From: a bacterium
GTDB taxonomy: Bacteria > SZUA-182 > DTGQ01
NCBI GenBank assembly: GCA_040752695.1
Contig: JBFMGO010000011.1
Coordinates: 6,114 to 70,113 of the forward strand
Length of the DNA stretch: 64,000 nucleotides
Reading direction: 5' to 3'
Made by a program: the position numbers and the translations under genes
Shown here: positions 1 through 42,986 of the stretch, in pieces
Position numbering within the stretch: the stretch's first letter is position 1
Layout: each line of letters opens with the position of its first letter
Notes under the pieces: model-generated
What the model was told of the DNA's origin: nothing
The model's input: only the letters and a program-made list of their open reading frames with translations
Databases searched by the model: none

Positions 1-466
1 AATTTTTCGTCAGGTAAGGGTTGGCAAGGATGGAAAAACCTTCGAGCTTTTGAAACTTCGCTCCATGCACCTGAACGCTGAAGAAAACGGCGTTGCCTGG
101 GCACAGAAAAATGATGCACGGATAACCCGCGTTGGTCGTTTGATCCGGTATTTACGTATTGACGAGATCCCCCAAATGGTCAACGTGCTTCGGGGGGAGA
201 TGAGCCTGATTGGCCCAAGACCTGAGCGGCCTGAGTTTGTCAGCCAGCTTGAGAGCAAAATACCCTACTATTCAGTCCGTCACTGTATCAAGCCAGGAAT
301 CACCGGATGGGCACAGATCAAATATCCGTATGGTTCTTCAGTCAGCGATGCTCTTCATAAACTGGAATATGACCTTTACTATGTCAAAAACATGACGCCG
401 CTCCTGGATTTCGAGATCTGCCTCAAGACCATAGGCGTCATGCTTTTTGGTCAGGGTGCGCGCTAA
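1..466 (+). CDS. Partial CDS (5' end outside window): C-terminal catalytic domain of a bacterial sugar transferase, i.e. polyprenyl-phosphate hexose-1-phosphate transferase of the WbaP/PssY/PglC type
   Basis: The reading frame is open from nt 2. Translation ...FRQVRVGKDGKTFELLKLRSMH...DEIPQMVNVLRGEMSLIGPRPERPEF...KPGITGWAQI is the hallmark of the Bac_transf family (KFRSM, RPE(R)P, PGITG motifs). Stop at 466. Confidence 0.8.
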   Translation, partial: IFRQVRVGKDGKTFELLKLRSMHLNAEENGVAWAQKNDARITRVGRLIRYLRIDEIPQMVNVLRGEMSLIGPRPERPEFVSQLESKIPYYSVRHCIKPGITGWAQIKYPYGSSVSDALHKLEYDLYYVKNMTPLLDFEICLKTIGVMLFGQGAR

Positions 467-800
467 GCAGCGGTATTGCGTGCTCAGTGTATATACGTCA
501 CTTTGAATTACCCGGCCAGTTGAACTTGCCCCCCATAGTGGAAGCGACTTGAAAGCCGCTTAAGTGCCGCAGGATGGCGCTTGCGCTATGAAACTTAAGA
601 TTAGCCGCCCAGCCGGTTAATTGGCCGCGTATTCAACGCGGCCTGTACTCATGCGGTGAATTCAGGTTCCAAAGAGAGCATGGAACTGAAAGGGCGAAGC
701 TTTATTCAGAAGTCAGGAGGATGCTGAAACCAGGAATCAGGAGCCAGAAATCAGTACCGGCATCCATAAATATAATATTAAGGAGGCTAATGCGTATCTT

Positions 801-1703
801 ATGTCTGATAGTATGTCCGATACTCTGATATCTTCATCAATTGCCGCTGTCAAATCGGTTGCCGGTGCTCCTGATGCCGGTGCTCCTGAGCGGATTATCC
901 GTCCAAGACGCGGAATCGTGGATATCGATTTCAAGGAGCTATGGCGTTTCCGGGAGCTTTTTGGATTTCTGGCCTGGCGGGATATCCTTGTCCGGTACAA
1001 ACAAACGGTCATCGGCATTGCCTGGGCCGTGATTCAGCCGGTGTTGACCATGATTGTCTTTACCGTCATATTCGGCCGGGTAGCCAGCCTTCCAAGTAAT
1101 GGTGCGCCATATGCTGTCATGACCTTTACCGCCCTGTTGCCCTGGCAGTTCTTTGCCGATGCCATGAGCCGGAGTAGCAATTCCCTGGTCGGCTCGGCCA
1201 ACCTGATCACCAAGGTTTACTTCCCGCGGCTGATTATTCCGGCAAGTGCCGCTATCAGCGGCGTCATCGATTTTTCCATCGGATTTGCCATTCTCCTTGG
1301 ACTTATGACCTGGTACCACATTCCATTCAGCCCTTTGCTCCTGCTCCTGCCTGCTTTTCTGATGATTGCCCTTTTTGCCTCCTTTGGCGTTGGTCTTTGG
1401 TTTGGCGCTTTGAATGTCAAGTACCGGGACATCGGCCATATCGTCCCTTTTCTGGTGCGCATGGGCCTGTATATCAGTCCGGTAGGCTTCATGTCCGGCA
1501 TCATTCCCGGGAAGTGGCGGTTTCTCTACAGCCTCAATCCCATGGTTGGAGTCATTGACGGATTTCGCTGGTGTATCCTTGGCAGTCAATTCGAACCCTA
1601 TTGGCCTGGATTTTGGGCAAGTTTGATGATGGTTCTGGCTGTACTGGTCTTTGGAGCCTGCTTTTTCAAGAGTATGGAAAAAAACTTTGCCGATGTTATC
1701 TAG
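801..1703 (+). CDS. wzm: ABC-2 type polysaccharide/O-antigen exporter permease (Wzm/KpsM/TagG-like)
   Basis: 300 aa with about six predicted TM helices. N-terminal region ELWRFRELFGFLAWRDILVRYKQTVIGIAWAVIQP is typical of ABC-2 permeases. It lies immediately upstream of an ABC ATPase. Confidence 0.8.
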   Translation: MSDSMSDTLISSSIAAVKSVAGAPDAGAPERIIRPRRGIVDIDFKELWRFRELFGFLAWRDILVRYKQTVIGIAWAVIQPVLTMIVFTVIFGRVASLPSNGAPYAVMTFTALLPWQFFADAMSRSSNSLVGSANLITKVYFPRLIIPASAAISGVIDFSIGFAILLGLMTWYHIPFSPLLLLLPAFLMIALFASFGVGLWFGALNVKYRDIGHIVPFLVRMGLYISPVGFMSGIIPGKWRFLYSLNPMVGVIDGFRWCILGSQFEPYWPGFWASLMMVLAVLVFGACFFKSMEKNFADVI

Positions 1704-1721
1704 CTCACATTACCTGATGCC

Positions 1722-1783
1722 GACATTATCCGATACTGATATTATCAGGTATTGATATTATCTGATACTGACATTATCTGACC
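1722..1783. repeat. Four tandem about 16-bp repeats (TGAYATTATCYGATAC) in the wzm-wzt intergenic region
   Basis: gacattatccgatac / tgatattatcaggtat / tgatattatctgatac / tgacattatctgacc, read directly from the sequence. Confidence 0.8.
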
Positions 1784-1820
1784 ATGTAATTTCTTATCAC
1801 GTTTTCTGGAGTTTTTCAGT

Positions 1821-3119
1821 ATGTCAACGCCAGTGATTAAAGTAGCAAATCTCGGCAAGAAGTACAGGCTGGGAGCCACGCTGAATCACGATACCTTGCG
1901 TGACCACCTTGCCTGTGGTGTTAAAACCCTCTGGCATCGCCTGCGGGGAAACGGGCATTTCAGCCATGCAGACAAGCTGGCCCTCCCGTCGTCTTCACCT
2001 GCCAAAGGAGGGAATGATGAATTCTGGGCACTCAAGGATGTCTCCTTTGAAATCATGCAGGGTGAAATCGTGGGCATCATCGGGCGAAATGGTGCGGGGA
2101 AAAGCACCCTCCTGAAGATATTGAGCAAAATCACTGAGCCGACCAAAGGGGAGGTTCGCATGCGAGGCCGGGTGGCAAGTTTATTGGAGGTCGGCACCGG
2201 CTTCCATCCAGAACTCACCGGCAGGGAGAATATCTACCTGAATGGAGCCATCCTGGGCATGAGCAGGACCGAGATAAGAGCCAAATTTGACGAGATCGTG
2301 GCTTTTGCCGAAATCGGCCAGTTTATCGACACACCGGTGAAGCGCTATTCAAGCGGGATGTACGTGAGGCTGGCCTTTGCCGTAGCCGCTCACCTCGAGC
2401 CGGAGATCCTGCTGGTGGATGAGGTGCTGGCGGTCGGCGATGCAGGCTTTCAGAATAAATGTCTGGGTAAGATGGGGGATGTGGCCAAACAAGGACGGAC
2501 AGTGCTTTTTGTGAGTCATAATATGGCGGCTGTACAGAATATCTGCTGTAAAGGAGTTATATTGAAGCATGGTGAAGTCCACTATCAGGGACAGATCAAT
2601 GAAACGGTTCAGAAATATATTGAAACATATACTATACCTGAAAAGCAAAATCTGAAGGATATTACCGACCGCGTCGGAAACGGGCTTGTACGGATCACCG
2701 CTATCACTGTTTGTGACTTGCAGGGACATGCGGTTGAAGCGGTTGGAATTGGCGAGGGGTGTAAAGTTTATCTTGACTACGAGAGTACCCGCAACTTCAC
2801 CCCCACATGTGTAGAGATCGGTATCGCTTTCATATCGATTCTGGGCGCTAAGGTTGTCATGTTCAGTAACCTGGTAGCCGGTCAATTGTTTCAGAGTCTG
2901 CCCTCCCGTAGTAAGGTCTGCTGTACGATTCCTTCCCTGCCTATTGCAGATGGAAGCTATTTCATCGGTGCATCGTTTTCCAGTAATAACGAAGTAGCTG
3001 ACTGGATCGATAAAGCCGTCCGATTCACTGTCTACCAATCAAACTTCTATGGATCGGGAAGACTTTATCGTGCCGGATCGACTCATCTCTATCTGCATCA
3101 TACCTGGGAGTTGGCATGA
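1821..3119 (+). CDS. wzt: ABC transporter ATP-binding protein Wzt/TagH-like, with about 170-aa C-terminal extension (putative glycan-terminus-binding domain)
   Basis: Walker A GRNGAGKST, signature YSSGMYVRLAF, Walker B ILLVDEVLAVGD, H-loop SHNM. C-terminal beta-rich extension (aa about 260-432) as in E. coli O9a Wzt. RBS GGAG precedes the ATG. Confidence 0.85.
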   Translation: MSTPVIKVANLGKKYRLGATLNHDTLRDHLACGVKTLWHRLRGNGHFSHADKLALPSSSPAKGGNDEFWALKDVSFEIMQGEIVGIIGRNGAGKSTLLKILSKITEPTKGEVRMRGRVASLLEVGTGFHPELTGRENIYLNGAILGMSRTEIRAKFDEIVAFAEIGQFIDTPVKRYSSGMYVRLAFAVAAHLEPEILLVDEVLAVGDAGFQNKCLGKMGDVAKQGRTVLFVSHNMAAVQNICCKGVILKHGEVHYQGQINETVQKYIETYTIPEKQNLKDITDRVGNGLVRITAITVCDLQGHAVEAVGIGEGCKVYLDYESTRNFTPTCVEIGIAFISILGAKVVMFSNLVAGQLFQSLPSRSKVCCTIPSLPIADGSYFIGASFSSNNEVADWIDKAVRFTVYQSNFYGSGRLYRAGSTHLYLHHTWELA

Positions 3120-3149
3120 AGAGCACCTCACCATGAAGAGAATTTCACC

Positions 3150-4664
3150 ATGAAGAGAATTTTATTGGGAATACCGGAAAAACATTCTCTCGATGCACTC
3201 TATCCACCAGTAGGATTGCTCTACCTGGCCGCTATGGCTCGAAATCAGGGCCACATGGTAAAAGTTATGGACGCTCAGGTAGTGGGGGAGGAAGCGCTTT
3301 TAACTGAATTTGTACATGGTGATTATGAATATTTCGGGACCACGATTTTGACTCCGCTGAGAGAGAGTTCCTACGCTCTTATCCGCAAGATCAAAGCCCT
3401 GAAGCATCATTGTACAGTAATTGCCGGAGGCGCTCATATTTCCATCCTCCCAAAACAAACAATGGAGCACGTTCCGGAGATTGACATTGCTGTCGCAGGA
3501 GAAGGAGAGCAAACCCTGGTGGAAATACTTTCAGGCAAAAATTTATCAGACATTCAGGGTATTTGGTACCGCCACAATGGGCAACTCGTACATACAAAAC
3601 ATCGAAAATCCTTAGATCCCGCTTTCATTCCCATGCCGGCCTGGGACCTGATCGATCTTACACCCTACCGTGCCTATGAGGATGTGATTATTGACGGTAT
3701 TTCATTTGCCGATAAGCCGTTCCTGACCATTTATTCTTCCCGTGGATGTACCGGATCATGCAGTTTCTGCTCGACGTGGTGGATATGGCGCAACTGGAGA
3801 CAGATACCGGCATCCAGATTTGTCGATGAAATCGAATACCTTTACCATCGCGGGATTGACCACTTTTTCATTGCGGATGATTCGATGATTAACAAGGAGG
3901 AGTTCGTTCATCAATTTTCCAATGAAATAATCAGGCGAAAGATCAATATCAAGTATAAAATCGCCTGTCGTGCTGATAAACTTACTTATCCTGTCGTTGA
4001 CTCACTGAAGAAATCAGGATGCTACGAAATCCATATCGGATTCGAGAGTGGCTCACAGAGAATCCTGGATTCCATAGGCAAGAAAATGAAAGTCGAGGAT
4101 AATATCCAGGCTGCCAAGCTCGTGCGAGAAGCTGGACTTCGCCTTTATGCCTTGATTATAGTCGGGGCGGTTGAAGAAGACCTTGAAACAATCAATGAAA
4201 CCATACGTTTTTTGAAAAAAATCAAACCTGATGTAGTAGCCACTATGGGGGGTCTCATGCTGCTGCCTGGCACGAGGGACTACCGGAAGGCAGTTCGTCA
4301 AGGCGTAGTGTCTGACGATTTCTGGTTAGGTCAGGAGACATTTCCCTTCTATACGAAAAATTTTTCAAAAAAGGAACTGCAACTTCTCTGCTTAGCCGTA
4401 CTCAAGCGGCAGACGATATGGTCTCGAAAACTTCTCCATCTTCAGTTTCTGCTCTGCTACCCGATGCAATACGCAAATATCATGGAAATGAACCGGGCTG
4501 CAAAAAAAACTATCTGTTTATACAGCCACTTATACAGGTTATGCAGCCACTTGTACAGGTTACACAGTCACTTATACAGGTCCTTTTCCCGCTTGATTAA
4601 CCTTTTATACATAAAAGTAAGACAAAAATCATATGAGATATTCACACCCGATTCAGCTCATTAG
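3150..4664 (+). CDS. Cobalamin (B12)-binding radical SAM domain protein (class B radical SAM, possible C-methyltransferase or other glycan-modifying enzyme)
   Basis: N-terminal B12-binding-like domain (LLYLAAMARNQGHMVKVMD...IAGGAHIS). Radical SAM cluster motif SSRGCTGSCSFC (CxxxCxxC). Elp3-like core. C-terminal tail is encoded by a 21-bp tandem repeat. Confidence 0.8.
   Translation: MKRILLGIPEKHSLDALYPPVGLLYLAAMARNQGHMVKVMDAQVVGEEALLTEFVHGDYEYFGTTILTPLRESSYALIRKIKALKHHCTVIAGGAHISILPKQTMEHVPEIDIAVAGEGEQTLVEILSGKNLSDIQGIWYRHNGQLVHTKHRKSLDPAFIPMPAWDLIDLTPYRAYEDVIIDGISFADKPFLTIYSSRGCTGSCSFCSTWWIWRNWRQIPASRFVDEIEYLYHRGIDHFFIADDSMINKEEFVHQFSNEIIRRKINIKYKIACRADKLTYPVVDSLKKSGCYEIHIGFESGSQRILDSIGKKMKVEDNIQAAKLVREAGLRLYALIIVGAVEEDLETINETIRFLKKIKPDVVATMGGLMLLPGTRDYRKAVRQGVVSDDFWLGQETFPFYTKNFSKKELQLLCLAVLKRQTIWSRKLLHLQFLLCYPMQYANIMEMNRAAKKTICLYSHLYRLCSHLYRLHSHLYRSFSRLINLLYIKVRQKSYEIFTPDSAH
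4523..4583. repeat. Three tandem 21-bp repeats (CAGYCACTTRTACAGGTTAYR), in-frame at the 3' end of the radical SAM gene
   Basis: cagccacttatacaggttatg / cagccacttgtacaggttaca / cagtcacttatacaggtcc encode LYRLCSH/LYRLHSH repeats. Confidence 0.8.
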
Positions 4665-5319
4665 ATCAGCGAAAAACGCTCGATATATTCCAAAGCATGA
4701 ATTTATACGCCTCCATGTAAAGGACAGGGATGTATTGGACTTGGGCTGCGTTGCGCATTCCCTCAGCTTCTGCCTGAATTTTCCGCATCGCTGGCTGCAT
4801 AATACCATTCGCAGTCATGCAAGGTCCGCTCTCGGTGTGGATTTACTGGAAAAAGAGATAACGGAACTACAAAAGATGGGCTATAACGTGATCTATGGGG
4901 ATGCTCAAACCTTACGGCTGGGCCGGAAATTCGATGTAGTCGTCTGCGGAGATCTGATCGAGCATGTAGCCAATCCTGCCGCCCTCCTTGACACGATGGC
5001 CTGTCACATCCAAGACGACGGAATCGCTATCGTCACTACACCAAACCCTTTTGCGATTACCCGCTTTTTTAATATCCTGGCCGATGGATGGACAGCTATT
5101 AATACGGAACACACCTTCTGGATCTGTCCTCAAACGATGTTTCAACTGGTTGATCGGTCCAGGCTGTGCGTGGCGGATTTCAGTTGGCTGAAGACAGACT
5201 TCCCCATGTTGACCACCCATCGTTTCTGGGGCCCGCTGCTCAACTCTATCGCTCCACGAATTGCCAATAAAAACCAGTTATTCCGCAACGACTACGGAGT
5301 GGTATTAAGGAAAAGGTAA
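4633..5319 (+). CDS. Class I SAM-dependent methyltransferase (Methyltransf_11/23-like, paralogue family A)
   Basis: Motif I VLDLGC..., post-II block FDVVVCGDLIEHVANP...DGIAIVTTPN. This block is shared with ORFs 20145, 20930 and 23156. Confidence 0.65.
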   Translation: MRYSHPIQLIRSAKNARYIPKHEFIRLHVKDRDVLDLGCVAHSLSFCLNFPHRWLHNTIRSHARSALGVDLLEKEITELQKMGYNVIYGDAQTLRLGRKFDVVVCGDLIEHVANPAALLDTMACHIQDDGIAIVTTPNPFAITRFFNILADGWTAINTEHTFWICPQTMFQLVDRSRLCVADFSWLKTDFPMLTTHRFWGPLLNSIAPRIANKNQLFRNDYGVVLRKR

Positions 5320-6360
5320 ATGCACTTTCAAGTTCATGGCAGGAGAAGCCCTTTTGTCTCGATTATCCTCCCGACCCGTAACCGCGCCATGTATCTCGAA
5401 GGAGCATTGCGGGCTGCCTTCGCCCAAAACTATCCTCCCGAACGTTTCGAAGTAATCGTAGTAGATAACGCATCAGTTGATGACACGTCACAGCTTGTGC
5501 GGATGCTGGCCGGGGAAGTAGAGGGAAGGATCAACATGAAATACATTCGCGAAAGCAGGGCTGGCCTGGTATTTGCGCGCCACACAGGCGCTGCCCACGC
5601 CGAAGGGGAAATCCTGCTTTTTGGCGACGATGATGCAATCTATAGCGATAACTGGATTTCTGAAATCGTAGAGGTTTACCTTCGATACCCCGAAGTAGGT
5701 GCGGTTGGTACGAAAATCGAAATCCAATGGGACCGCGATCCTGCCCCCTGGGTCCTTCGCCATGAACGGGTACTCGGTAAATTAGACTATGGACCCAAGG
5801 TGCTTGTGCGGCATGGCCTTTATATTAATGGAGGAAGCTTCTCGATTCGGAAGCAAATTCTCCTACAGGCCAAAGGCTTCAATCCGGGCCAGAAAGGAGA
5901 TTACATAATAGGGGATTCGGAAACCGGGCTCTGCCGCAAACTTGCCAGCCATGGAATTATAGTCGGATGGACGCCTGCTGCAACGATGTGGCACATTCAG
6001 CGGGCTGACGTACATGGAACGCTCCATGATATGAAACGGCGATTTAGGAACAATGGGATCTGTGAGGCTTACTATGCCACTTTTTACAACCGAAGATTCA
6101 ACGATGTCCTTTATGATATTTTTCGCAGACCATACCGGGTGCTGCGGAATTTTTTTTGCCGGATCCGTCACATGGGCTTGAAAGAACCTTGTTATGAACT
6201 GAGGCTGGAAATAGCCTATTATATTTACTATATCAAATACTTATACCTTTATCGATTTAACCGGGCAATCCGCAGCGAAGTAATGAGAACACAGGATTGG
6301 GAGTTCAGCCACAGCTACGAAGCTCCTCCGGTAGAATTCACCATTTGTCACCTGGGATGA
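5320..6360 (+). CDS. Glycosyltransferase family 2
   Basis: VSIILPTRNR...FEVIVVDNASVDDT, DxD-like FGDDD. GT-A fold signature. Confidence 0.8.
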   Translation: MHFQVHGRRSPFVSIILPTRNRAMYLEGALRAAFAQNYPPERFEVIVVDNASVDDTSQLVRMLAGEVEGRINMKYIRESRAGLVFARHTGAAHAEGEILLFGDDDAIYSDNWISEIVEVYLRYPEVGAVGTKIEIQWDRDPAPWVLRHERVLGKLDYGPKVLVRHGLYINGGSFSIRKQILLQAKGFNPGQKGDYIIGDSETGLCRKLASHGIIVGWTPAATMWHIQRADVHGTLHDMKRRFRNNGICEAYYATFYNRRFNDVLYDIFRRPYRVLRNFFCRIRHMGLKEPCYELRLEIAYYIYYIKYLYLYRFNRAIRSEVMRTQDWEFSHSYEAPPVEFTICHLG

Positions 6361-6374
6361 GGAGAAGAAAGGCA

Positions 6375-6788
6375 ATGAATTGTCCCGCTATTGAACATAT
6401 CTTCCATGAAAATTCCCTTCTCGCCATTATTATCCATTCAGATTTCCACAAAGAAGGAATCGAGTTCTTCACTCCAGACGACTATTCTCAGCAGATTGCT
6501 TATATGAATCGCCCTGCCGGTTACAGGGTAACGCCTCATATTCATAATAAACTCCAACGAGAGGTGTTTTATACCCAAGAAGTATTATTCATGAAAAGAG
6601 GTATGGTTAAGGTTGACTTTTACGATGAGCGCCGGAATCACGTAGACACCAGGATATTGAAAACAGGTGATGTGATTCTTTTGGCATCAGGTGGCCACGG
6701 ATTTGAAATGATCGAGCAGAGCGAGATCATAGAAGTCAAGCAGGGCCCTTACGCAGGTGACAACGATAAAACCAGGTTTTCAGCCTGA
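6375..6788 (+). CDS. Cupin-fold sugar 3,4-ketoisomerase (FdtA/QdtA/Tyl1a, WxcM-like domain)
   Basis: 138 aa from the internal ATG at 6375, preceded by GGAGAAGAAAGG RBS. The longer ORF from 6297 overlaps the upstream gene. Motifs NRPAGYRVTPHIHNK and GDVILLASGGHGFEMIE are typical of the small cupin NDP-4-keto-6-deoxyhexose 3,4-isomerases. Confidence 0.6.
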   Translation: MNCPAIEHIFHENSLLAIIIHSDFHKEGIEFFTPDDYSQQIAYMNRPAGYRVTPHIHNKLQREVFYTQEVLFMKRGMVKVDFYDERRNHVDTRILKTGDVILLASGGHGFEMIEQSEIIEVKQGPYAGDNDKTRFSA

Positions 6789-6793
6789 GCACT

Positions 6794-8059
6794 ATGAATA
6801 ACCATATGCCAGTAAACGAAATACCAGTAAACGAACCTTTATTAAATGGCCGCGAGAAAGAATTTCTCTGTAAATGCATCGATACTGGCTGGATTTCTTC
6901 GGATGGGCCTTTTGTCAGGGAATTTGAAGAGCGGTTTGCCTCTTATATAGGGAGAGGCTATGGCATAGCGGTCTGTAATGGGACAGCAGCGCTCGAGACA
7001 GCCTTCTATGCGACTGGTATCGAAGAGGGAGACCAGGTAATCATGCCTACATTCACCATCATCTCCTGTGCTATGGCAGCGATGAGGCTGGGTGCTAAAC
7101 CTGTACTGGTAGATATTGAGCCGGAAACGTGGTGCATGGATGTCAGGCAATTGGAATCCAAAGTCGATGCTGAAATGAAAAACGGCAACGAAGGACTGAA
7201 GGCGATTATGCCGGTGCATATTTATGGACACCCTGTTGATATGGACCCGGTGGTGAAGGTGGCGCAACGCTATGGATTGAGGATCATAGAGGATGCCGCC
7301 GAGGTGCACGGCGCTGAGTATCTGAGCAGACTCCTGCCTGAAGATAAGCCCGATACTGTTACCAATATATCCAATTCCAATATATCCAGTATGGAGGATA
7401 GGAATAAAGAAAGGGAAACTTGCGGAACCTGGAAAAAGTGCGCGAGTATGGGGCATGCGGCTGCGTTTTCCTTCTATGCCAATAAAATTATAACTACAGG
7501 CGAGGGGGGCATGGTTGTCACCAATGACCCGCTGATGGCAGAGCGTGCCAGGTCTTATAGAAACTTATCTTTCAGGCCCGATAAGCGCTTTTATCATACC
7601 GAGCCCGGGTATAACTTCAGGATGACCAGTCTCCAGGCAGCCATAGGGTTGGCTCAGTTGGAAAGGATCGAGGAATTTATTACCATAAAACGCCATTTAG
7701 GCGCTTACTATCGAGAGCGACTGGCTGCTGTTCCAGGAGTTCGCTTCCAGGCCGAAAAACCCTGGGCGAGGCCGGTTTACTGGATGTACGCCATAGAGCT
7801 TGATCCTGAACTTGGTATCGATGCTGAAACCGTGAGAGTCCGGCTCAAAGAGAACAATATCGGTACACGCCCCTTCTTTCTGGGACTTCACGCCCAGCCT
7901 GTGCTCAGGCAAATGGGGCTTCATCCGGATGAAAGCTCCTACCCAAATGCGGATCGGGCTTATAAATACGGTCTTTATCTGCCTTCCGGCCTGACCATGA
8001 CCGAAGAAAAAGTCGATGTGGTGTGCACTGCCCTGGCAACGGTACTCAACCAGAGGTAG
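6794..8059 (+). CDS. DegT/DnrJ/EryC1/StrS-family PLP-dependent NDP-sugar aminotransferase, with an unusual about 34-aa internal insertion
   Basis: N-terminal LNGREKEFLCKCIDTGWISSDGPFVREFEERFASYIG, PLP-lysine region FSFYANKIITTGEGGMVVTND, C-terminal RPVYWMYAIEL. Confidence 0.85.
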   Translation: MNNHMPVNEIPVNEPLLNGREKEFLCKCIDTGWISSDGPFVREFEERFASYIGRGYGIAVCNGTAALETAFYATGIEEGDQVIMPTFTIISCAMAAMRLGAKPVLVDIEPETWCMDVRQLESKVDAEMKNGNEGLKAIMPVHIYGHPVDMDPVVKVAQRYGLRIIEDAAEVHGAEYLSRLLPEDKPDTVTNISNSNISSMEDRNKERETCGTWKKCASMGHAAAFSFYANKIITTGEGGMVVTNDPLMAERARSYRNLSFRPDKRFYHTEPGYNFRMTSLQAAIGLAQLERIEEFITIKRHLGAYYRERLAAVPGVRFQAEKPWARPVYWMYAIELDPELGIDAETVRVRLKENNIGTRPFFLGLHAQPVLRQMGLHPDESSYPNADRAYKYGLYLPSGLTMTEEKVDVVCTALATVLNQR

Positions 8060-8062
8060 TCA

Positions 8063-8192
8063 GATAATAGCGGTAGATAGACAGTGAAAGCAGACAGCCG
8101 ATGAAAATAGGTAGGCAATGGCGGCAGACAGACAATGGCGGCAGATAGACAGTGGAAATAGACAGACAGGGGAGGTAGACAGACAATGGCGG
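8063..8192. repeat. Degenerate AGACAGA-rich tandem repeats, including three copies of (c)agacagacaATGGCGG; the last copy carries the methyltransferase start codon
   Basis: caatggcggcagacagacaatggcggcagatagacagtgg ... gtagacagacaatggcgg. Confidence 0.75.
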
Positions 8193-8968
8193 TTTTCGAT
8201 CTCTATGGCCGGTATTATAATCTTCTCTACGAGGATAAGGATTATGCCGCAGAGGTGGCTTATATCGATCGGCTCATCAACAAATATGCCCTTCATGCGA
8301 AAACAGTACTGGATCTTGGCTGCGGTACAGGCAGCCATGATCTGCTGCTGGTCGAAAAGGGATACAGGGTCACCGGGTTAGATATGTCTTTGGCTATGCT
8401 GACAGAGGCACAAGCCAGGCTCGAAAAAGCCGCCAGGTCCTGCGGGGCTTCAGTTTTTGATTCCCTTGCCTTTTACCAGGCCGATATTCGCAGCGTACGC
8501 CTTGACCGGACCTTTGATGTGGCAATATCTCTTTTCCATGTTATGAGTTATCAAATAACCAATGCCGATCTTCAGCAGACCTTTGAGACAGTTAAAGCGC
8601 ATTTGAATCCAGGGGGCATATTTATCTTTGATTGCTGGTACGGTCCCGGAGTACTGACAGAACCTCCGGCAATACGGATTAAGGAACTGGAAGGTGAGAA
8701 CATTTCCGTGATGCGCATTGCCAAACCGATAACGTATCCTCATGAGAATGTGGTAGATGTGAATTACCGGGTCTGCATCTTTGACAAGAGTACACAACGT
8801 ATGGAAGAATTCCGGGAGTGCCATCGCATGCGTTATTTGTTCAAACCGGAGATTGACCTGTTTTTGGACCAGGCAGGTTTTCAGTCAAGGGGTTTCTTTG
8901 AGTTTATGAAGAATGAAGAGCCTGGCCGCGGAGCCTGGAATGTCTGTTTCGTGAATCAAAGGCTGTAA
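8186..8968 (+). CDS. SAM-dependent methyltransferase, TylM1/DesVI-like (NDP-amino-sugar N-methyltransferase family)
   Basis: 260 aa. N-terminal YYNLLYEDKDYAAEVAYIDRLI, then motif I VLDLGCGTGSH, ...FDCWYGP. Overall layout parallels TylM1 (YDLVH..KDY...LLDVACGTGMH...VEPWW). Confidence 0.6.
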   Translation: MAVFDLYGRYYNLLYEDKDYAAEVAYIDRLINKYALHAKTVLDLGCGTGSHDLLLVEKGYRVTGLDMSLAMLTEAQARLEKAARSCGASVFDSLAFYQADIRSVRLDRTFDVAISLFHVMSYQITNADLQQTFETVKAHLNPGGIFIFDCWYGPGVLTEPPAIRIKELEGENISVMRIAKPITYPHENVVDVNYRVCIFDKSTQRMEEFRECHRMRYLFKPEIDLFLDQAGFQSRGFFEFMKNEEPGRGAWNVCFVNQRL

Positions 8969-9019
8969 GAACCAGCATATCAAGATAAAGTAAAGTGTGA
9001 AGACAAGACCAAGTGCACT

Positions 9020-10657
9020 ATGAAGATTGGAAATTCTTTGGAAATTCTGATGAAAAAAAACCTGCCATTGCTTATTACGACCTTTATCATTGCTGTTTTC
9101 TCATTTTGGCGGTTTTTCCTGATCGTGTCTCTCCCTCCGGAAGATTTAGTAACAATAACTACCGATGACGCTTTTTACTATATGAATATCGCTTCTCATA
9201 TCGCCAGCGGACACGGAGCCACGTTTGACGGCATAAATAAAACCAATGGCTTTCATCCCCTGTGGCAACTCATGTTAATTCCCGTCTACAGGCTCATTCC
9301 TTCCAACCGTCTCCTGGCCTTGCGTGTTACTCTGATTTTTCAGCTTCTGGTTTTTATCTCTATACTCATTCTTACAATCCGGTTTACCTGCCGCATCTAT
9401 GGGGCTATAGCTCTGTTTCCGATCCTGATCGTATTTCTGTTCTCCGGCTTCAGCAATTGTCTTCTTGAGGGAATGGAAACTCCCATTCACCTCGTTATCC
9501 TGGCACTGATAATAGTATATATGACTGAAACCTGGTCTGTTCATCATCCCACCCTGCCCAAGGATGCCACTTTAGGCATTTTGATAGGCTTGCTTACCCT
9601 GGCACGTCTTGAGTCCTTTTTGATCCTTTTCTCATGCCTCGTTTTTATGGCCTGGTATCGTTTATCGAATAAGCTTCAGCTTCTTCACTTCGTGGTGCGG
9701 GCGATCAGGATAACTGCACCTGTGACCATGCTTGTTCTGCCTTTTCTTATCTGGAATAAAATTAATTTTGGCCATTTTGCAACCATCAGTTCTCGGTTGA
9801 AAAGCACTTTTCCGCACCTTTCCTTTAAGCCGTCGCTTTTTCTGAGATATCCTCAATGGGCAGCCCTGGTGATCGTTACCCTGTTATTTTTCCTCATTCT
9901 TGTTTTCGGAAGATACTTTAAGACCGGACAAAGGATACTTCAGGAAATGTCCCAACCCTATCAAAACGCGTCGCTGATATACTGTCTGTATGTCCTTATG
10001 CACTTTTCATTTATCCTTTTGTTTTCACGGTGGGAAATAGGAGGCTGGTATTTTGCACCTTATCTTCTGGTTATACCTTTATCAAGCGGCCCGGTTATAT
10101 CGGCTCTCAGAAAAAGTTCTTATTCTGCCAGGCTTAGGCCGGTGTTTGTTTTTATCATCATTCTGGGGCTGGGGTTGGATATATCCATGCAATGCCTTTC
10201 GCTTCGGTATCGGCTTAACGGTTATGCAAATAGTTTTCACCGGCCCTCGTATAGAGCAGCACTATGGGCGAAACAAAACATTCCAAAGGGTGCGGTTTTT
10301 GCGACGACTGACTGTGGCGTGTTCGGCTATTTTTCTGAGCGTTCAGTCATTGAGCTGGATGGAATAGTGAATAATTTCGAGTATCAGGAATGGCTCCTGA
10401 AAAGAGGTCTCAAAGATTATCTCTTCCATAAAGGAGTAAATTATATCAGGGACTACGCTTCCCTGGCACCTGAAAAATACAATCAGTTTCAATACACCAT
10501 CCGGAGCAAAATCGACAGGGACTTTTACAGCAGTATTTCCCTCTCTCCATCGGATGAACGATACCGTTCCAGTTCCTTTGAACATTTAAGTAAAAATAAA
10601 TGTCAGGTTATATGGAATTTTCCCCGCTCCATAGTTCACAGGGATGTTGAAAAGTGA
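9020..10657 (+). CDS. Polytopic membrane protein, putative GT-C-fold glycosyltransferase (ArnT/PMT-like) with C-terminal soluble domain
   Basis: At least 10 predicted TM helices in the first about 380 aa. Acidic loop motif TTDDAFYY after TM1, as in GT-C enzymes. About 160-aa hydrophilic C-terminus. Confidence 0.4.
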   Translation: MKIGNSLEILMKKNLPLLITTFIIAVFSFWRFFLIVSLPPEDLVTITTDDAFYYMNIASHIASGHGATFDGINKTNGFHPLWQLMLIPVYRLIPSNRLLALRVTLIFQLLVFISILILTIRFTCRIYGAIALFPILIVFLFSGFSNCLLEGMETPIHLVILALIIVYMTETWSVHHPTLPKDATLGILIGLLTLARLESFLILFSCLVFMAWYRLSNKLQLLHFVVRAIRITAPVTMLVLPFLIWNKINFGHFATISSRLKSTFPHLSFKPSLFLRYPQWAALVIVTLLFFLILVFGRYFKTGQRILQEMSQPYQNASLIYCLYVLMHFSFILLFSRWEIGGWYFAPYLLVIPLSSGPVISALRKSSYSARLRPVFVFIIILGLGLDISMQCLSLRYRLNGYANSFHRPSYRAALWAKQNIPKGAVFATTDCGVFGYFSERSVIELDGIVNNFEYQEWLLKRGLKDYLFHKGVNYIRDYASLAPEKYNQFQYTIRSKIDRDFYSSISLSPSDERYRSSSFEHLSKNKCQVIWNFPRSIVHRDVEK

Positions 10658-11826
10658 AAAAGCGGATTGCGATCGTATATCCGTGGGGGAATTTGGACAC
10701 CGTACCGAGTCTGTGTAATGCTGCCGAACTATTGGCAAATACAGGATATGAAGTCGAGATTTTCACTTACCTTAATCCCCGGTTTATAGGGCCATCATTT
10801 TCCCATAAGTCCATAATGATCGTTACTCCCCGCCCTAGATGGGAAAGACAAGGCATTCATCGCCTTATTCCTGCCCGATGGTCTTATCCTTTGCAGATTT
10901 GGCAACGGCACTTGCGCTGCCGCTATCGTTGCTTTATCGGGGTAGATCCTGAAGGATTAGTGCAGGCTGGCTGGCTGTCCAGATGGATTACCGTGCCGCT
11001 TGTTTATTATTCGCTGGAATTGCTCCTTTCGGGGGAGATAGCGCTTGCGGAACAAAGCCAATTGAAGCGGGCTGAAAAAAGACTCAGCCACAGGGCTGCA
11101 TTCATTATTATTCAGGATGAGGAAAGGGCCCGGTTAATGGCGGAAGATAATGATGTTCCTCTTGATCGGTTTGTCCTGGTACCGAATACTCCGCAGGGAC
11201 CAGCCAGGCGGCAGTATTCAGGTTACTGGCATAAAAAATTAGGGCTGCCGGAGCGCTGCCGGATCGTCCTTCATGCCGGAAGCATAGAGAATTGGACCGG
11301 ATTAAAAGAAATTGTGGATTCAGTGAAGGAGTGGCCGGAGGATTGGGTTCTGGTCATCCATTCCCGCTCCTATTATCAGCATTCCGGTTTTATGGAAGAA
11401 TTGCGCAGGCAAGCCCCTGAAGGCCGTGTCTTCTTCTCGCTCAAGCCGGTTTCCCGGCAGGATTACGATGCCTTGATTCATGGTGCGGACATCGGCATCG
11501 CATTTTATGTCCCCTCGGAAGGGTCTGTATATACTCAGCAAAACATCCGAAGTGTCGGTTTATCATCAGGAAAAATCGCCTATTACCTGCGGGCAGGATT
11601 GCCTGTGATTGCCAATGACCAAACCTCTATCGGTACTTTCATCAATCAGGAGAAATGCGGCCTTGTTATCCAATCGCCAGATGAGATCGGTGAGGCTATC
11701 GTTACTATCGTCCATGACTACGACAGCTACAGCAAACGGTCCCTTCAAGCTTTTGACCGCCATCTGGATTTCACTCATGGTTTTCATCGAGTAACAAGAT
11801 GGATCGATTCTCTCGAGGAAAGATGA
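10654..11826 (+). CDS. Putative glycosyltransferase, divergent GT-B fold
   Basis: Start overlaps the upstream stop (ATGA-type). N-terminal MKKRIAIVYPWGN is Rossmann-like. The C-terminal half is GT-B-like. The family is not certain. Confidence 0.45.
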   Translation: MKKRIAIVYPWGNLDTVPSLCNAAELLANTGYEVEIFTYLNPRFIGPSFSHKSIMIVTPRPRWERQGIHRLIPARWSYPLQIWQRHLRCRYRCFIGVDPEGLVQAGWLSRWITVPLVYYSLELLLSGEIALAEQSQLKRAEKRLSHRAAFIIIQDEERARLMAEDNDVPLDRFVLVPNTPQGPARRQYSGYWHKKLGLPERCRIVLHAGSIENWTGLKEIVDSVKEWPEDWVLVIHSRSYYQHSGFMEELRRQAPEGRVFFSLKPVSRQDYDALIHGADIGIAFYVPSEGSVYTQQNIRSVGLSSGKIAYYLRAGLPVIANDQTSIGTFINQEKCGLVIQSPDEIGEAIVTIVHDYDSYSKRSLQAFDRHLDFTHGFHRVTRWIDSLEER

Positions 11827-12650: not shown

Positions 12651-12727
12651 AGTCCTCATCTTATTATTCTCGATAGCTTATTAATATCCATAGTTTATTA
12701 TTCTCTATAGAGAAATATACCTGCCTC

Positions 12728-18911: not shown

Positions 18912-19018
18912 TTCCTTAGGATGACGAGGGCGGCGGAGCAGACCAGGTGAAGCAGGTAAGACAAACCGCCCGTCATGAAATCCGAGTAAGATCCGAATGA
19001 AATCCGAGTAAGATCCGA

Positions 19019-20170
19019 ATGAGATCCGAAAAAACAATCCTTCAGGTTCTCCATTTTATACCACGCAACAAGCGCAGTATGGAACTATTTTTGCTGCGGC
19101 TGAACAAAGAAATCGTACAAAATGGCTGGAGCCATATTCTCGTCCTCGAACCACCGGTGCCGTACTGGTTTCGGAACGAAATTGAAAAGGATGGCGGGTC
19201 CATTGTTCTGTTTTCCTTTCCCTTGAGGTTTACCTCTGCGGTCAGTCTCCTGCGTATCCTGATAAAGCATCAGCCGGATGTACTCCATGCGCACTTTATT
19301 TCACCTTTTAATCCCTGGATACACTTAATAAAGAAGATATCCCCCGGCTGCTGCCTGATTTATACGGATCATAGCTCCGGCAATATACGCAAAAAATCTG
19401 CCATATCAGAGTACATTTCGTTTGTAAGAGGAAAATTGGCAAGCATGTCTTTTAACCGGCTCATAGCTGTTTCGGATTATGTTGCGGAGCGTGATATAAA
19501 GCAGGCTCATCTATCCGGAAGAAAGGTGATACGCATTTATAACGGAAATGGCATCGACATCGAAAGCCGGTTTCCAGTCCGGTCATCCGAAGATGAAGAT
19601 TATCGGGAATCCGGGCCTGTCCGAGTAACCTTTGTTGGACGGCTCATCAGGAAAAAGGGTGTCATGACTCTGCTCCGGGCGTTTAAACAGGTAAGGCAAA
19701 CGGTTACTATTCCCGTTGAATTAGTGATAGCTGGCAAAGGACCCATGGAGAGCGAGCTTCGCTCATATTGCTCGAAGGAGGGTCTGACTGACGTCGAGTT
19801 TCCCGGATATGTCAGCGATATTGCTGACCTTTTCTCAAGGGCGGACATTGTCGTGGTCCCATCGGAATGGGACGAAGCCTTTGGATTTACGGTCGTGGAA
19901 GGTATGGCTGCCGGTGCGGCTGTTTTGGGTTCGGATGCAGGGGGAATCCCTGAAATCCTGGGCTGCCGGCCAGAGGCCGGCCTGGTATTCAAAAGGGGGA
20001 ATGAGGGTGATCTGGCCTGTAAGCTTAGACAATTAGTTGAAAACCCTTCATTAAGGCAGGCCCTGGGGCGCTCTGCCCGAGAGCGGGTCGAGGCATTTTT
20101 CACTCTTGATTCCATGGTCAGGGGCTATTTGGAAGTCTACCGGAATGTTCTCTTATCTAACCAGATCTGA
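19019..20170 (+). CDS. Glycosyltransferase family 4
   Basis: VRVTFVGRLIRKKG...EAFGFTVVEGMAAGAAVLGSDAGGIPEIL. Confidence 0.8.
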   Translation: MRSEKTILQVLHFIPRNKRSMELFLLRLNKEIVQNGWSHILVLEPPVPYWFRNEIEKDGGSIVLFSFPLRFTSAVSLLRILIKHQPDVLHAHFISPFNPWIHLIKKISPGCCLIYTDHSSGNIRKKSAISEYISFVRGKLASMSFNRLIAVSDYVAERDIKQAHLSGRKVIRIYNGNGIDIESRFPVRSSEDEDYRESGPVRVTFVGRLIRKKGVMTLLRAFKQVRQTVTIPVELVIAGKGPMESELRSYCSKEGLTDVEFPGYVSDIADLFSRADIVVVPSEWDEAFGFTVVEGMAAGAAVLGSDAGGIPEILGCRPEAGLVFKRGNEGDLACKLRQLVENPSLRQALGRSARERVEAFFTLDSMVRGYLEVYRNVLLSNQI

Positions 20171-26339: not shown

Positions 26340-27023
26340 ATGCGATATCAAAACCAAAACTTATATAAACATGCTGTCATCTCCATACTCGCCTTCTTTC
26401 TTTTTCTTCTTGGAAGCGGTCCCAGTCACGGCCAGGAGAACCCGCCATCCCCACTGTATCGGGAATCGCTTCGGGAAACCCTGGGGGAGTTTCAGGCCGG
26501 AACCAGGAGGATTACGAGAATTCAGACCAGGGACCGGAGTAATCTGACGAAAAGTCAAAACAAAGGAGTCATGGCTCTGAGTACGGAAGACAAAAAGGAT
26601 GACATCAGAAGTTTCCAATTTCCGCTTCGACCCGCAACTACCCCCCGCAATGAAGGAAGAACCGCACAACAGCGGCAACTGCCAACCTTTACCGGTGTGT
26701 TCCCGTGCCTTCCGCGCCTTCCCACGCTGCTGGGAGCAACCTGCAACACCACCTGCGGACTTCGAGCCGGATGCCTGATCAGCGCTCCCACCTTTGTAGG
26801 AGCGACCTGTAACACCACCTGCGGCCTTCGGGCCGGATGCTCTCTCGGTTCACCTACCTTTGTAGGAACGACCTGCAACATCACCTGCGGTCTTCGGTCT
26901 ACCTGCTCCAATAATCAGCTTTGTCAGATACTTGCACCCGTTATTTCGCCCTTCGCCAGGAACGACGGCTGCCACCGCCTGGCTGATGCAGGCAGGAAGA
27001 TGTTTATCTTCAACATGTTTTAG
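26340..27023 (+). CDS. Secreted Cys-rich tandem-repeat protein (hypothetical)
   Basis: AGGAG RBS 7 nt before the ATG. N-terminal signal peptide MRYQNQNLYKHAVISILAFFLFLLGSGPSHG. Three about 20-aa repeats PT(L/F)(L/V)G(A/T)TCN(T/I)TCGLR(A/S)(G/T)C, encoded by three about 60-bp DNA repeats. Confidence 0.45.
   Translation: MRYQNQNLYKHAVISILAFFLFLLGSGPSHGQENPPSPLYRESLRETLGEFQAGTRRITRIQTRDRSNLTKSQNKGVMALSTEDKKDDIRSFQFPLRPATTPRNEGRTAQQRQLPTFTGVFPCLPRLPTLLGATCNTTCGLRAGCLISAPTFVGATCNTTCGLRAGCSLGSPTFVGTTCNITCGLRSTCSNNQLCQILAPVISPFARNDGCHRLADAGRKMFIFNMF
26721..26910. repeat. Three tandem about 60-63-bp in-frame repeats encoding the Cys-rich 20-aa repeats
   Basis: ...acctgcaacaccacctgcggacttcgagccggatgc... 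repeated three times with point differences. Confidence 0.85.
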
Positions 27024-27072
27024 CTCAAATTTCCAGCAAGCTCAGATTTCCAGCCTTCGCGCCCTTTTATCC

Positions 27073-29527: not shown

Positions 29528-29620
29528 TCCCCCGCCATCAGCCAGCCGGTCTTCCTGCACTCTTGTTCCTGTATTTTTATTTCTGCATTCTTGTTTCTGT
29601 ACTTTTATCTCTGTATATTT

Positions 29621-31807: not shown

Positions 31808-31860
31808 GATCTATTGCCTTTCTCTGACGGTGTGGAACAGCTTAAAAGGTGAGGAATAAC

Positions 31861-39470: not shown

Positions 39471-39489
39471 GATGATTCTCCATACGGTG

Positions 39490-39625
39490 ATTCTTCATAT
39501 GATGATTTGATTTCTCCGTTTTGTATGGTTTGATTTCTCTGTATGATGATTTGATTTCTCCATTATGATGGTTGGATCTCTCTGTATGATGATTTGATTT
39601 CTCCATATGATGATTTTTCCATGCT
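39490..39625. repeat. About 6 tandem 21-22-bp repeats (ATGATGATTTGATTTCTCCRT) filling the eboF-eboD intergenic region
   Basis: atgatgatttgatttctccgtt / ttgtatggtttgatttctctgt / atgatgatttgatttctccatt / atgatggttggatctctctgt / atgatgatttgatttctccat / atgatgatttttccatg. Confidence 0.85.
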
Positions 39626-39643
39626 GTATCCCTGTCGGAACGG

Positions 39644-42968: not shown

Positions 42969-42986
42969 TGACCGTTTCCTCTTATC

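Follow-up and report, generated by a model that had tools for sequence, protein, structure and literature searches.

A candidate capping module with a B12-type radical SAM enzyme behind a CBD-bearing Wzt in an ABC-transporter-dependent polysaccharide locus

Every Wzt carbohydrate-binding domain (CBD) studied so far accompanies a terminal cap that is needed for export (PMC11231755; PMC9445017). Characterized terminators have a coiled-coil molecular ruler as their hallmark; they can be Kdo-adding glycosyltransferases (GTs), or can combine GT2 modules with a fused methyltransferase domain, as in ORF6-O7 of Klebsiella pneumoniae (PMC11231755). Escherichia coli O9a/O8 (K. pneumoniae O3/O5) shares with the locus described here a WzmWzt exporter, a C-terminal jelly-roll CBD on Wzt and, in the WbdD system, a SAM methyltransferase encoded near wzt; beyond these, the block examined here includes a GT2 as well as a radical SAM enzyme of the B12 type. 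In Aquifex aeolicus, the paradigm for methyl-cap recognition, the CBD binds 3-O-methyl-mannose or -rhamnose caps (PMC9445017); these are simple O-methyl caps, with no radical SAM enzyme involved, whereas a radical SAM gene is present here. Compared with the K. pneumoniae O12, O4 (GT137) and O7 systems, neither a Kdo transferase (GT99 or GT137) nor a methyltransferase-kinase was found in this locus.

The window, the whole stretch of 64,000 nucleotides that was analyzed, carries consecutive, tightly packed genes for Wzm, Wzt, the radical SAM enzyme, the class I methyltransferase MT23 and a soluble GT2 (Table 1); MT23 and the radical SAM gene overlap by 32 nt, and GT2 starts one base past the MT23 stop. 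An earlier note on this DNA had placed the wzt, radical SAM and methyltransferase genes in a row, and all three were recovered in those places and on that strand. The radical SAM, MT23 and GT2 proteins have no transmembrane segments, and a CBD-bearing Wzt and a Wzm permease are encoded alongside cytoplasmic GTs, the combination that characterizes capped ABC pathways.

Table 1. Features of the export-proximal part of the locus (positions in the window).
Feature	Position	Strand	Basis
Priming polyprenyl-phosphate glycosylphosphotransferase, 3' end (EpsB_2/WcaJ-like)	2..466	+	NCBIfam TIGR03013 E 6.6e-80, TIGR03025 E 3e-72; 154-aa fragment
Wzm, glycan exporter ABC-2 permease	801..1703	+	PF01061 E 1.6e-18; at least 4 hydrophobic segments
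Wzt, whole gene, 432 aa	1821..3119	+	ABC_tran residues 71-202, Wzt_C residues 283-411
Wzt nucleotide-binding domain (NBD), residues 1-268	1821..2624	+	PF00005; PDB 8dku/7k2t; homologs
Wzt C-terminal CBD, distinct subfamily	2625..3119	+	PF14524, AF2 model, Foldseek
17-nt tandem triplication of radical SAM start region	3115..3162	+	TRF; sequence read
B12-binding-domain radical SAM enzyme, 504 aa	3150..4664	+	Pfam; AF2; 16 orthologs
21-nt x3 tandem repeat within radical SAM tail	4518..4581	+	TRF; alignment; sequence
Class I SAM methyltransferase MT23, 228 aa	4633..5319	+	PF13489 Methyltransf_23 E 1.1e-10
Soluble family-2 glycosyltransferase GT2	5320..6360	+	PF00535 E 4e-26; no TM segment
Small conserved cupin, WbuC-like	6375..6788	+	TIGR04366 E 4.5e-6, below cut-off
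DegT/LegC/PseC-type sugar aminotransferase	6794..8059	+	PF01041 E 3.6e-105; TIGR04181 319 bits, below cut-off
Second class I methyltransferase MT25	8186..8968	+	PF13649 E 9.6e-18
GT4-type glycosyltransferase	10654..11826	+	Pfam; homologs after MT25 in related loci

The C-terminal extension of Wzt was matched by Wzt_C (PF14524) with 55.8 bits, above the cut-off of 30.4 (E 6.5e-15), C-terminal to the NBD; its length, about 165-170 aa, and its beta-rich nature in the AF2 model (pLDDT 90) agree with the earlier description. Wzt CBDs made up all of the top 17 Foldseek matches of this model in the PDB (TM 0.54-0.76; E 1.6e-8 to 6.6e-7); their bound caps are Kdo, 3-O-methyl-mannose or methyl-phosphate; the best structures were 5HNO, 6O14/8DKY and 2R5O (TM 0.62-0.76). 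The top structural match, 5HNO, belongs to the WbbB plus Wzt-CBD system of K. pneumoniae O12/Raoultella terrigena (5HNO/5HNP) and was also the sole significant sequence-profile match. The O9a CBD (2R5O) reached TM 0.63-0.67 at only 15-16% sequence identity, and the A. aeolicus CBD TM 0.62-0.76 at 16-17% identity; the best full-length PDB sequence match was A. aeolicus WzmWzt (6O14, 8DKY, 8DKU, 7K2T), with the NBD aligned to 8dku/7k2t at E 3e-66 and the similarity extending into the CBD. By its modelled fold, the extension is a true Wzt-type CBD, which bears out the suspected resemblance to a carbohydrate-binding module. Among 119 Wzt homologs (120 listed with the query), NBD identity was flat (61-75%) and CBD identity was bimodal, with 50-58% in four proteins and at most 35% in 115; further members were found in loci L005 (54%) and L007 (40%). 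By these identities, the CBD is a member of a distinct subfamily with 40-58% identity inside.

We read this region, tentatively and with somewhat less than even confidence, as the export-proximal part of a polysaccharide locus that depends on an ABC transporter, and in which the radical SAM enzyme, MT23 and GT2 form the cap-forming module for a CBD-gated WzmWzt. On the cytoplasmic face, with the polymer linked to undecaprenyl-PP, the soluble GT2 would put a residue on the non-reducing end, MT23 would O-methylate it, and the radical SAM enzyme would further modify the same residue by radical chemistry, most likely by placing a methyl group onto an unactivated carbon; the Wzt CBD dimer would then recognize the finished end and license export. 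We infer the product to be a terminal cap, the CBD to be its reader, and the radical SAM chemistry to be of this kind. Counting against the cap reading, no long coiled coil was seen by eye in three unannotated proteins of the locus; the sole coil-like element seen was the C-terminal helix of the radical SAM enzyme (49 residues, three heptad repeats).

The radical SAM enzyme combines an N-terminal B12-binding domain (PF02310, residues 17-126; E 1.8e-20; 73.4 bits, cut-off 32.1) with a radical SAM core (PF04055, residues 195-355; E 3.4e-19), and the cysteines of its CX3CX2C motif (C200/C204/C207; nt 3747-3770) are invariant across 83 homologs; the AF2 model has a pLDDT of 96. With both architectural hallmarks present the enzyme is of the class B type, and cobalamin binding is predicted. 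The same two-domain build and motif occur in AprD4 (6FD2, diol dehydratase), OxsB (5UL4, ring contraction) and HpnJ (hopanoid sugar rearrangement), at no more than 20% identity between the enzyme and every solved structure. Together with the aminoglycoside C-methylases GenK and GenD1, which have this build as well, they provide precedent for sugars as targets of radical chemistry; all these enzymes belong to pathways for small molecules or lipids, and none takes part in assembling a polysaccharide.

The reaction type is harder to read, and methylating and non-methylating B12 radical SAM enzymes were not separated by sequence or fold comparison. None of the 33 NCBIfam equivalog matches came near its cut-off, so that no named B12-radical SAM family (BchE, HpnJ, HpnR, BzaD, PhpK, QCMT, TsrM, AprD4, KedN5 and others in NCBIfam) could be assigned; the highest scores belonged to BchE (154 bits against 481) and HpnJ, both non-methylating. 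A PDB profile search returned AprD4 first (189 bits) and then QCMT, OxsB, TsrM and TokK, and in Foldseek comparisons AprD4, OxsB, TsrM, QCMT, CysS and TokK were tied (TM 0.60-0.67). It is a serious possibility, if below even, that the enzyme is no methyltransferase and performs another radical sugar transformation: either it forms a keto sugar, by diol dehydration or by oxidation, for amination by the DegT protein, in the style of AprD4, BtrN or DesII, or it carries out ring contraction or rearrangement as in OxsB and HpnJ. This alternative concerns the chemistry only and fits a cap as well as an internal role. Besides the BchE and HpnJ scores, it draws on AprD4 as top PDB match by profile and also by sequence (E 3.9e-12), on two ordinary methyltransferases already encoded there, and on the cassette in the window, which lacks an SDR 4,6-dehydratase although its aminotransferase requires a keto sugar as substrate. 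Against these points, the alignment to AprD4, a non-B12 dehydratase, is confined to the radical SAM core, and the N-terminal domain, besides its Pfam B12-binding match, can be aligned with OxsB and TsrM, which bind cobalamin, but not with the degenerate domain of AprD4; the methylase QCMT scores nearly level with AprD4 in the profile search. A keto sugar can be provided in locus L013 by upstream Gmd-like SDRs and an SDR::cupin fusion, and the radical SAM gene is kept where DegT is absent, in the phage-like and L038 loci. Moreover, the cobalamin-binding radical SAM enzymes characterized so far are mostly methylases (PMC12931638). The positions aligned with lower axial ligands, a weak proxy, are hydrophobic (L67, against OxsB N186 and TsrM R69; P69, against TokK W76), a pattern described for radical methylases, and we lean to a methylase on this ground and on that of the N-terminal alignment; the residue two positions past the third cysteine is Thr209, where TokK has an aromatic residue. 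Judged from such comparisons, C-methylation by this enzyme is plausible.

As a block, the transporter, radical SAM, methyltransferase and GT2 genes were conserved in about 12 independent loci from metagenomes of several uncultivated bacteria, among them a Nitrospirota and a Desulfobacterales MAG, and the order of the last three genes was found in all 12 independent contexts of radical SAM orthologs (16 orthologs, 51-70% identity); such identical order in independent contigs is not a chance arrangement. In all seven loci with this CBD subfamily the radical SAM gene lies directly 3' of wzt. Locus L017, the nearest relative in Wzm (82%) and in the Wzt NBD (75%), has a CBD with only 29% identity and a plain class I methyltransferase, not a radical SAM gene, directly after wzt, which indicates that the CBD and the downstream genes were exchanged together; no radical SAM gene was found in the vicinity of the control Wzt P0130 (CBD 35%). 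Taken together, the seven of seven linkage, the L017 difference and the recurrent fusions of MT23 with GT2 support a functional tie between the genes after wzt and the transporter. As a caveat, the linkage could be mere inheritance of one operon.

Judged by ortholog distribution, it is MT23 and not the radical SAM gene that goes with the Wzt pathway. MT23 orthologs (44-60%) were found only in loci L005, L006/L010, L007, L013 and L038, all of the Wzt type, and in the Wzx and phage loci non-orthologous methyltransferases occupy the MT23 position. MT23 is fused to GT2 in L005, L006/L010 and L038, as well as in 5/10 top cluster representatives; the fused proteins (P0245, P0246, P0250, P0252, P0254) consist of a minimal methyltransferase and one GT2, about 570 aa in all, and parallel the methyltransferase-plus-GT terminator ORF6-O7. 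MT23 and GT2 are the candidate terminators in the locus, and neither is WbdD-like: a phmmer search of the PDB with MT23 (E 0.1 or better) yielded 3CC8 and various N-methyltransferases, with no entry for WbdD among them, and no kinase was found, in contrast to O9a/O8. Among the Wzt-type loci GT2 identity was mostly 43-53%, with L013 at 32%; the Wzx-type loci had 32-35% and the phage locus 28%; the protein is a candidate transferase for the modified, perhaps terminal, residue.

Radical SAM orthologs were also encoded behind Wzx flippases (61-62% identity) in three independent loci (L003/4, L008/9, L019/20), together with the same GT2, cupin, DegT, MT25 and GT genes, and the nearest ortholog (70%) lies on a phage-like contig without wzt. 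Wzx flippase pathways do not require a cap. These orthologs show that the radical SAM enzyme is not specific to capped ABC export. The chain-terminating modification proposed in the earlier note is in part supported, by the CBD and by the linkage of the genes to the transporter. It is possible, if rather doubtful, that the radical SAM, MT23 and GT2 genes, along with cupin, DegT, MT25 and GT, make and attach a heavily modified sugar, methylated and aminated, of the repeat unit or a side chain, and not a cap; the adjacency to wzt would then be operon synteny, and the CBD would read another feature. Apart from the Wzx-type loci, this interpretation is favored by L038, in which the order Wzt-radical SAM-MT23::GT2 accompanies an unrelated CBD (23% identity), also a point against the cap reading, and by the window locus itself, where at least seven methyltransferases and more than eight GTs suggest methylation throughout the polymer. 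More distant relatives of the radical SAM enzyme likewise have methyltransferase and GT neighbors where no Wzt is encoded. It conflicts with the constant position of the radical SAM gene after this CBD subfamily, with the joint exchange in L017 while Wzm and the NBD were retained, with the restriction of MT23 to Wzt-type loci, and with the presence of a CBD-bearing Wzt in 8/8 such loci and of a CBD-less Wzt in none. That the radical SAM and methyltransferase genes stand beside wzt by chance, or serve some other pathway, for instance one that modifies lipids or RiPPs, is highly improbable and effectively refuted by the synteny across different lineages. Nothing specific favors it beyond partial NCBIfam matches to lipid and RiPP families; the genes abut or overlap, there are methyltransferase::GT2 fusions and a GT4 fusion in the relative P0042, and precursor peptide or lipid genes were not found nearby.

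The cap reading in its full form, in which the radical SAM enzyme, MT23 and GT2 would install a radical-modified end residue, for example C- and O-methylated, that is read by a dedicated CBD subfamily before export, is rather unlikely. It would represent the first radical-SAM-dependent glycan cap, with a radical SAM enzyme sharing in the termination and licensing of a bacterial surface polysaccharide, and the transporter-radical SAM-methyltransferase-GT2 block would be a portable module, also acquired by Wzx loci and phages. The earlier remark that such enzymes are rare in glycan loci applies to characterized systems only; in metagenomes, relatives with 29-40% identity often have methyltransferase and GT genes at their sides.

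Further downstream, the cupin (54-68% identity across loci; fused to an SDR in L013) is part of an amino-sugar sub-module with the DegT-type aminotransferase (41-51%). MT25, conserved in Wzt-type and Wzx-type loci alike, had a daptide-type amine methyltransferase as its best NCBIfam model (E 8.6e-20, below cut-off) and is probably an amine N-methyltransferase for the amino sugar; the GT4-type GT has homologs (27-35% identity) in L005-L008 and L013, where they likewise follow MT25. These four proteins may make and attach an N-methylated amino-deoxy sugar, which would be the modified residue itself or its neighbor. Two tandem repeats mark the radical SAM gene: the 21-nt repeat in its tail encodes the heptad LYSHLYR three times, a triplication not found in the aligned orthologs, and the 17-nt triplication at its start creates two 6-codon mini-ORFs in an ATGA-overlap chain between the Wzt stop and the radical SAM start.

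The polysaccharide locus occupies bases 1-29.5 kb of the window as a single long run of plus-strand genes, in which the ABC-2 permease Wzm and its partner Wzt precede a radical SAM enzyme with a B12-binding domain (rSAM), a class I methyltransferase (MT23) and a family-2 glycosyltransferase (GT2). The coordinates and domain calls that the earlier note had made for Wzt, rSAM and the methyltransferase proved correct, judging by Pfam matches and the CX3CX2C motif. The 545-aa membrane protein matched no Pfam or NCBIfam model, and none of the related loci encodes a counterpart; after it, the plus strand carries GT4 glycosyltransferases, an FkbM methyltransferase, a Wzy_C protein, and further methyltransferases and glycosyltransferases. 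A promoter and terminator scan of bases 400-9100 yielded nothing exceeding shuffled expectation. Assignment of the small cupin as an FdtA-type 3,4-ketoisomerase was rejected for want of Pfam support; its sole match was a sub-threshold WbuC-like cupin.

Features of the polysaccharide locus and tandem repeats at gene junctions (window coordinates)
Feature	Position	Strand	Remarks
EpsB_2/WcaJ-type priming transferase, 3' end	2-466	+	first in locus
Wzm	801-1703	+	
Wzt	1821-3119	+	ABC_tran and Wzt_C (E 6.5e-15)
rSAM	3150-4664	+	B12-binding (E 1.8e-20), Radical_SAM (E 3.4e-19); C200-x3-C204-x2-C207
MT23, class I methyltransferase	4633-5319	+	Methyltransf_23 match
GT2	5320-6360	+	
Small cupin	6375-6788	+	
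DegT-family aminotransferase	6794-8059	+	
MT25, second methyltransferase	8186-8968	+	
Polytopic membrane protein, 545 aa	9020-10657	+	at least 9 hydrophobic segments; between MT25 and GT4
Wzc-like kinase and Wza-like export protein	29.6-32.7 kb	opposite	
Junction repeats	800-822, 1707-1781, 3115-3162, 8090-8192, 12660-12710, 18975-19030, 27022-27054, 29555-29626, 31829-31866, 38225-38330, 39471-39616, 42986-43045, 44871-44950		

The C-terminal extension of Wzt, which the earlier note had taken for a carbohydrate-binding domain (CBD), gave nothing significant when searched alone against PDB sequences (5HNO at E 0.86), and with a profile of six sequences the E-value for 5HNO improved to 0.0016; since this sequence match was weak, a structure model was needed to settle its identity. 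The 17 best Foldseek matches of the AlphaFold2 model (residues 254-432; 51 sequences in the alignment; pLDDT 90) were all Wzt CBDs, with TM-scores of 0.62-0.76 against isolated domains. The predicted fold resembles those of the Klebsiella pneumoniae O12 domain, associated with a Kdo cap (5HNO/5HNP), of the A. aeolicus domain, associated with a 3-O-methyl-mannose cap (6O14/8DKY; the full-length transporter was matched as well), and of the Escherichia coli O9a domain (2R5O). By this model the extension is a genuine CBD, as had been proposed. The transporter half of the locus falls squarely within the family of WzmWzt exporters that bear a CBD. In all systems studied, such a domain reads a cap at the non-reducing end of the glycan, and chains that lack the cap are not exported (PMC11231755, PMC9445017).

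Sixteen orthologs of the rSAM were identified (51-70% identity), each in a metagenome or a metagenome-assembled genome (MAG); their contexts were read from the encoding contigs, three collection scans and tblastn. In every context a transporter gene is followed by the rSAM, a class I methyltransferase and a soluble GT2, the last three forming a recurrent trio. Eight independent loci are of the Wzt type (the window, L005, L006/L010, L007, L013, L014, L015 and L038; the source MAG of L006/L010 is recorded as 'Nitrospirae bacterium MnB_6, Mn-Nitrospirae-1'), three are of the Wzx type (L003/4, L008/9 from a Desulfobacterales MAG, and L019/20), and one context is phage-like (L001/2/18), with DNA polymerase A, dUTPase and FolE. 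In most loci of the Wzt and Wzx types, the trio is joined by the cupin, the DegT-family aminotransferase, MT25 and a glycosyltransferase; neither the phage-like contig nor L038 has these companions. Upstream of wzm in L013, the cupin forms part of a 495-aa SDR (GDP-mannose-dehydratase-like)::cupin fusion (6573-8060 of that contig), next to which lie ManC, ManB, a second Gmd-like gene and DegT. This gene content suggests that the amino sugar of the cassette may derive from GDP-mannose, and the fusion hints that the cupin might act on a GDP-4-keto-6-deoxy sugar.

The coupling between CBD and cassette was examined by splitting the query Wzt into its nucleotide-binding domain (NBD) and CBD and comparing each with 119 homologs (120 listed including the query); these were collected with full-length Wzt, a word-indexed search with the CBD alone having returned 2 proteins only. 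NBD identity is flat (61-75%) and CBD identity is bimodal, at 50-58% for 4 proteins and at most 35% for the other 115; the CBDs of L005 (54%) and L007 (40%) belong to the same subfamily as that of the window. The rSAM gene lies directly 3' of wzt in seven of seven loci with this subfamily, and stop and start codons usually overlap at the junction. The closest transporter found, in L017 (1-3104; Wzm 82%, NBD 75% identical to the window), carries a CBD only 29% identical, and its wzt is followed by a class I methyltransferase of the ordinary kind where the window has the rSAM; in this natural control, the CBD and the genes downstream have evidently been replaced jointly, with Wzm and the NBD conserved. 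The rSAM is also absent with P0130, a second control Wzt. As a caveat, descent of one operon may account for part of the association in all seven loci. Strict exclusivity between CBD subfamily and trio is ruled out by L038, in which the CBD that accompanies Wzt, rSAM and an MT23::GT2 fusion shares just 23% identity with that of the window.

Wzx pathways need no cap, and the rSAM is common to them and to the phage-like element, which counts against the simple view that the rSAM makes the cap. Orthologs of MT23 (44-60% identity) occur in Wzt-type loci only; the methyltransferases at its position in Wzx- and phage-type loci are orthologous neither to MT23 nor to each other. MT23 is fused N-terminally to GT2 in L005, L006/L010 and L038, and the same fusion appears in five of the ten best 50%-identity cluster representatives from a search of 1.84 billion proteins; these fusions echo the terminator proteins of K. 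pneumoniae O7, which join a methyltransferase to a glycosyltransferase (PMC11231755). Transmembrane segments were found in none of rSAM, MT23 and GT2, which places their action in the cytoplasm, before export. A GtrB-like polyprenyl-phosphate glycosyltransferase, raised by a weak PHROG match of the phage copy, was rejected as an identity for GT2, since no GT2 has a transmembrane segment. The PDB sequence search revealed no resemblance of MT23 to WbdD, and reading a few locus sequences turned up no recognisable coiled-coil ruler protein of the kind typical of known terminators (PMC11231755); the candidate terminator half fits none of the characterised terminators (WbdD, WbbB, GT137, ORF6-O7). 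Of the proposal that Wzt, rSAM and methyltransferase form a capping module, the CBD and its tie to the rSAM hold; the distribution of the rSAM, the unfamiliar methyltransferase and the divergent CBD of L038 weigh against it. On balance, the trio is a portable unit for glycan modification. Where the exporter is of the Wzt type, this trio is the leading candidate for a cap-forming module, and within it MT23::GT2 is more specifically implicated than the rSAM.

The rSAM (AlphaFold2 model, pLDDT 96) is a class B-type enzyme with the architecture common to OxsB, TsrM, TokK and QCMT (PMC12931638). It fell under the cut-offs of all 33 NCBIfam matches, the top scores being BchE (154 bits) and HpnJ (147 bits). 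Against PDB, a profile of 83 homologs matched AprD4 at 189 bits, over the radical SAM core only, followed by QCMT (174), OxsB (162), TsrM (137) and TokK (108 bits); in Foldseek, TsrM, OxsB, AprD4, QCMT, CysS and TokK were tied at TM 0.60-0.67. Cobalamin binding is likely, because alignments extend through the N-terminal domain for true cobalamin binders but do not take in the degenerate domain of AprD4. In HMMER alignments L67 corresponds to N186 of OxsB and R69 of TsrM, and P69 to W76 of TokK, which points to a hydrophobic lower face, a feature described for radical methylases (PMC12931638). Two residues past the third cysteine the rSAM has Thr209, then Trp210; TokK has Trp at that position. 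These per-residue proxies for methylation (lower-axial, Cys3+2) give mixed signals, and none of NCBIfam, phmmer and profile searches of PDB, or Foldseek separates methylating from non-methylating relatives. Methylation is a somewhat probable reaction, and other radical sugar chemistry is a substantial possibility.

To our knowledge, all characterised caps in ABC-transporter-dependent pathways involve polar chemistry (O-methylation, phosphorylation, Kdo transfer), and no relevant precedent was found in the literature searched for B12 radical SAM enzymes in O-antigen, Wzt, capsule or EPS termination contexts. If correct, a link between a cobalamin-type rSAM and a Wzt domain that reads caps would bring radical chemistry into the termination of polysaccharide chains, establish a new class of CBD specificity, and offer the uncharacterised, glycan-locus-associated B12 radical SAM clade a testable substrate; should the module decorate internal residues instead, it would still indicate unusual C-modified sugars in environmental exopolysaccharides. 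The finding is comparative in nature, and is conserved and experimentally tractable: the block of five genes (wzm, wzt, rSAM, methyltransferase, GT2) is small, conserved and also present in the Mn-Nitrospirae-1 MAG, which makes a heterologous test realistic.

Further relatives of the rSAM occur in other settings. The phage-like contig L001 (= L002, L018), so classed by its PHROG DNA polymerase and dUTPase and with FolE at one end, carries at 6583-11024, directly after the DNA polymerase, two tandem B12-type rSAM genes (70% and 30% identical to that of the window) with a non-orthologous methyltransferase and a soluble GT2; this could be a glycan seroconversion or DNA-modification module. Distant relatives lie among methyltransferases and glycosyltransferases on IMG/VR contigs; on the viral-classed L035 (UViG_3300029959_000812, 7449-10919), where a phage integrase lies close by, a 36%-identical rSAM neighbours a Methyltransf_23 protein, a GT4 and an RMNT/CmcI rhamnosyl-O-methyltransferase-family protein. 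Among distant relatives, P0042 (876 aa) fuses a B12-rSAM to a GT4 glycosyltransferase and P0277 (723 aa) a Wzx-type flippase to an MT23-like methyltransferase; these fusions point to a tight coupling of such enzyme types with glycan assembly.

Short tandem repeats (11-66 nt, 2-7 copies) are spread over the window, nearly all of them at gene boundaries, and in several the start-codon region itself has been duplicated; they may stem from slippage, from phase variation or from a habit of the lineage. At 3115-3162 the rSAM start 'CATGAAGAGAATTTCAC' stands in three tandem copies, and two 6-codon mini-ORFs, chained by ATGA stop/start overlaps, bridge the stretch from the stop codon of Wzt to the genuine start of the rSAM. 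The repeat at 8090-8192 covers the MT25 start, and that at 800-822 is an in-frame duplication of the Wzm N-terminus (MSDS/MSDT). Within the rSAM gene, a 21-nt repeat (x3, 4518-4581) encodes the heptad LYSHLYR three times, inside a predicted 49-residue C-terminal helix; it is absent from all 16 orthologs, which are 27-53 aa shorter, and the longer tail produces a 32-nt overlap with MT23, in contrast to a 4-nt overlap or short gap in other loci. Two adjoining ORFs, at 26932-27669 (Glyco_trans_4_4) and 27702-28346 (Glycos_transf_1), correspond to the N- and C-terminal halves of a GT4, respectively, and probably represent one gene that is split or frameshifted; a 66-nt repeat (x2.5, 26733-26896) lies just 5' of them. 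On the minus strand, 37033-44340 encodes 3-dehydroquinate-synthase-like, xylose-isomerase-like TIM barrel, type I phosphodiesterase, UbiA prenyltransferase, TatD-like hydrolase and squalene-hopene-cyclase-like proteins, which may form a cyclitol or prenyl lipid pathway and appear unrelated to the Wzt-rSAM finding; also on the minus strand, 47215-58425 is one ORF of 3736 aa.
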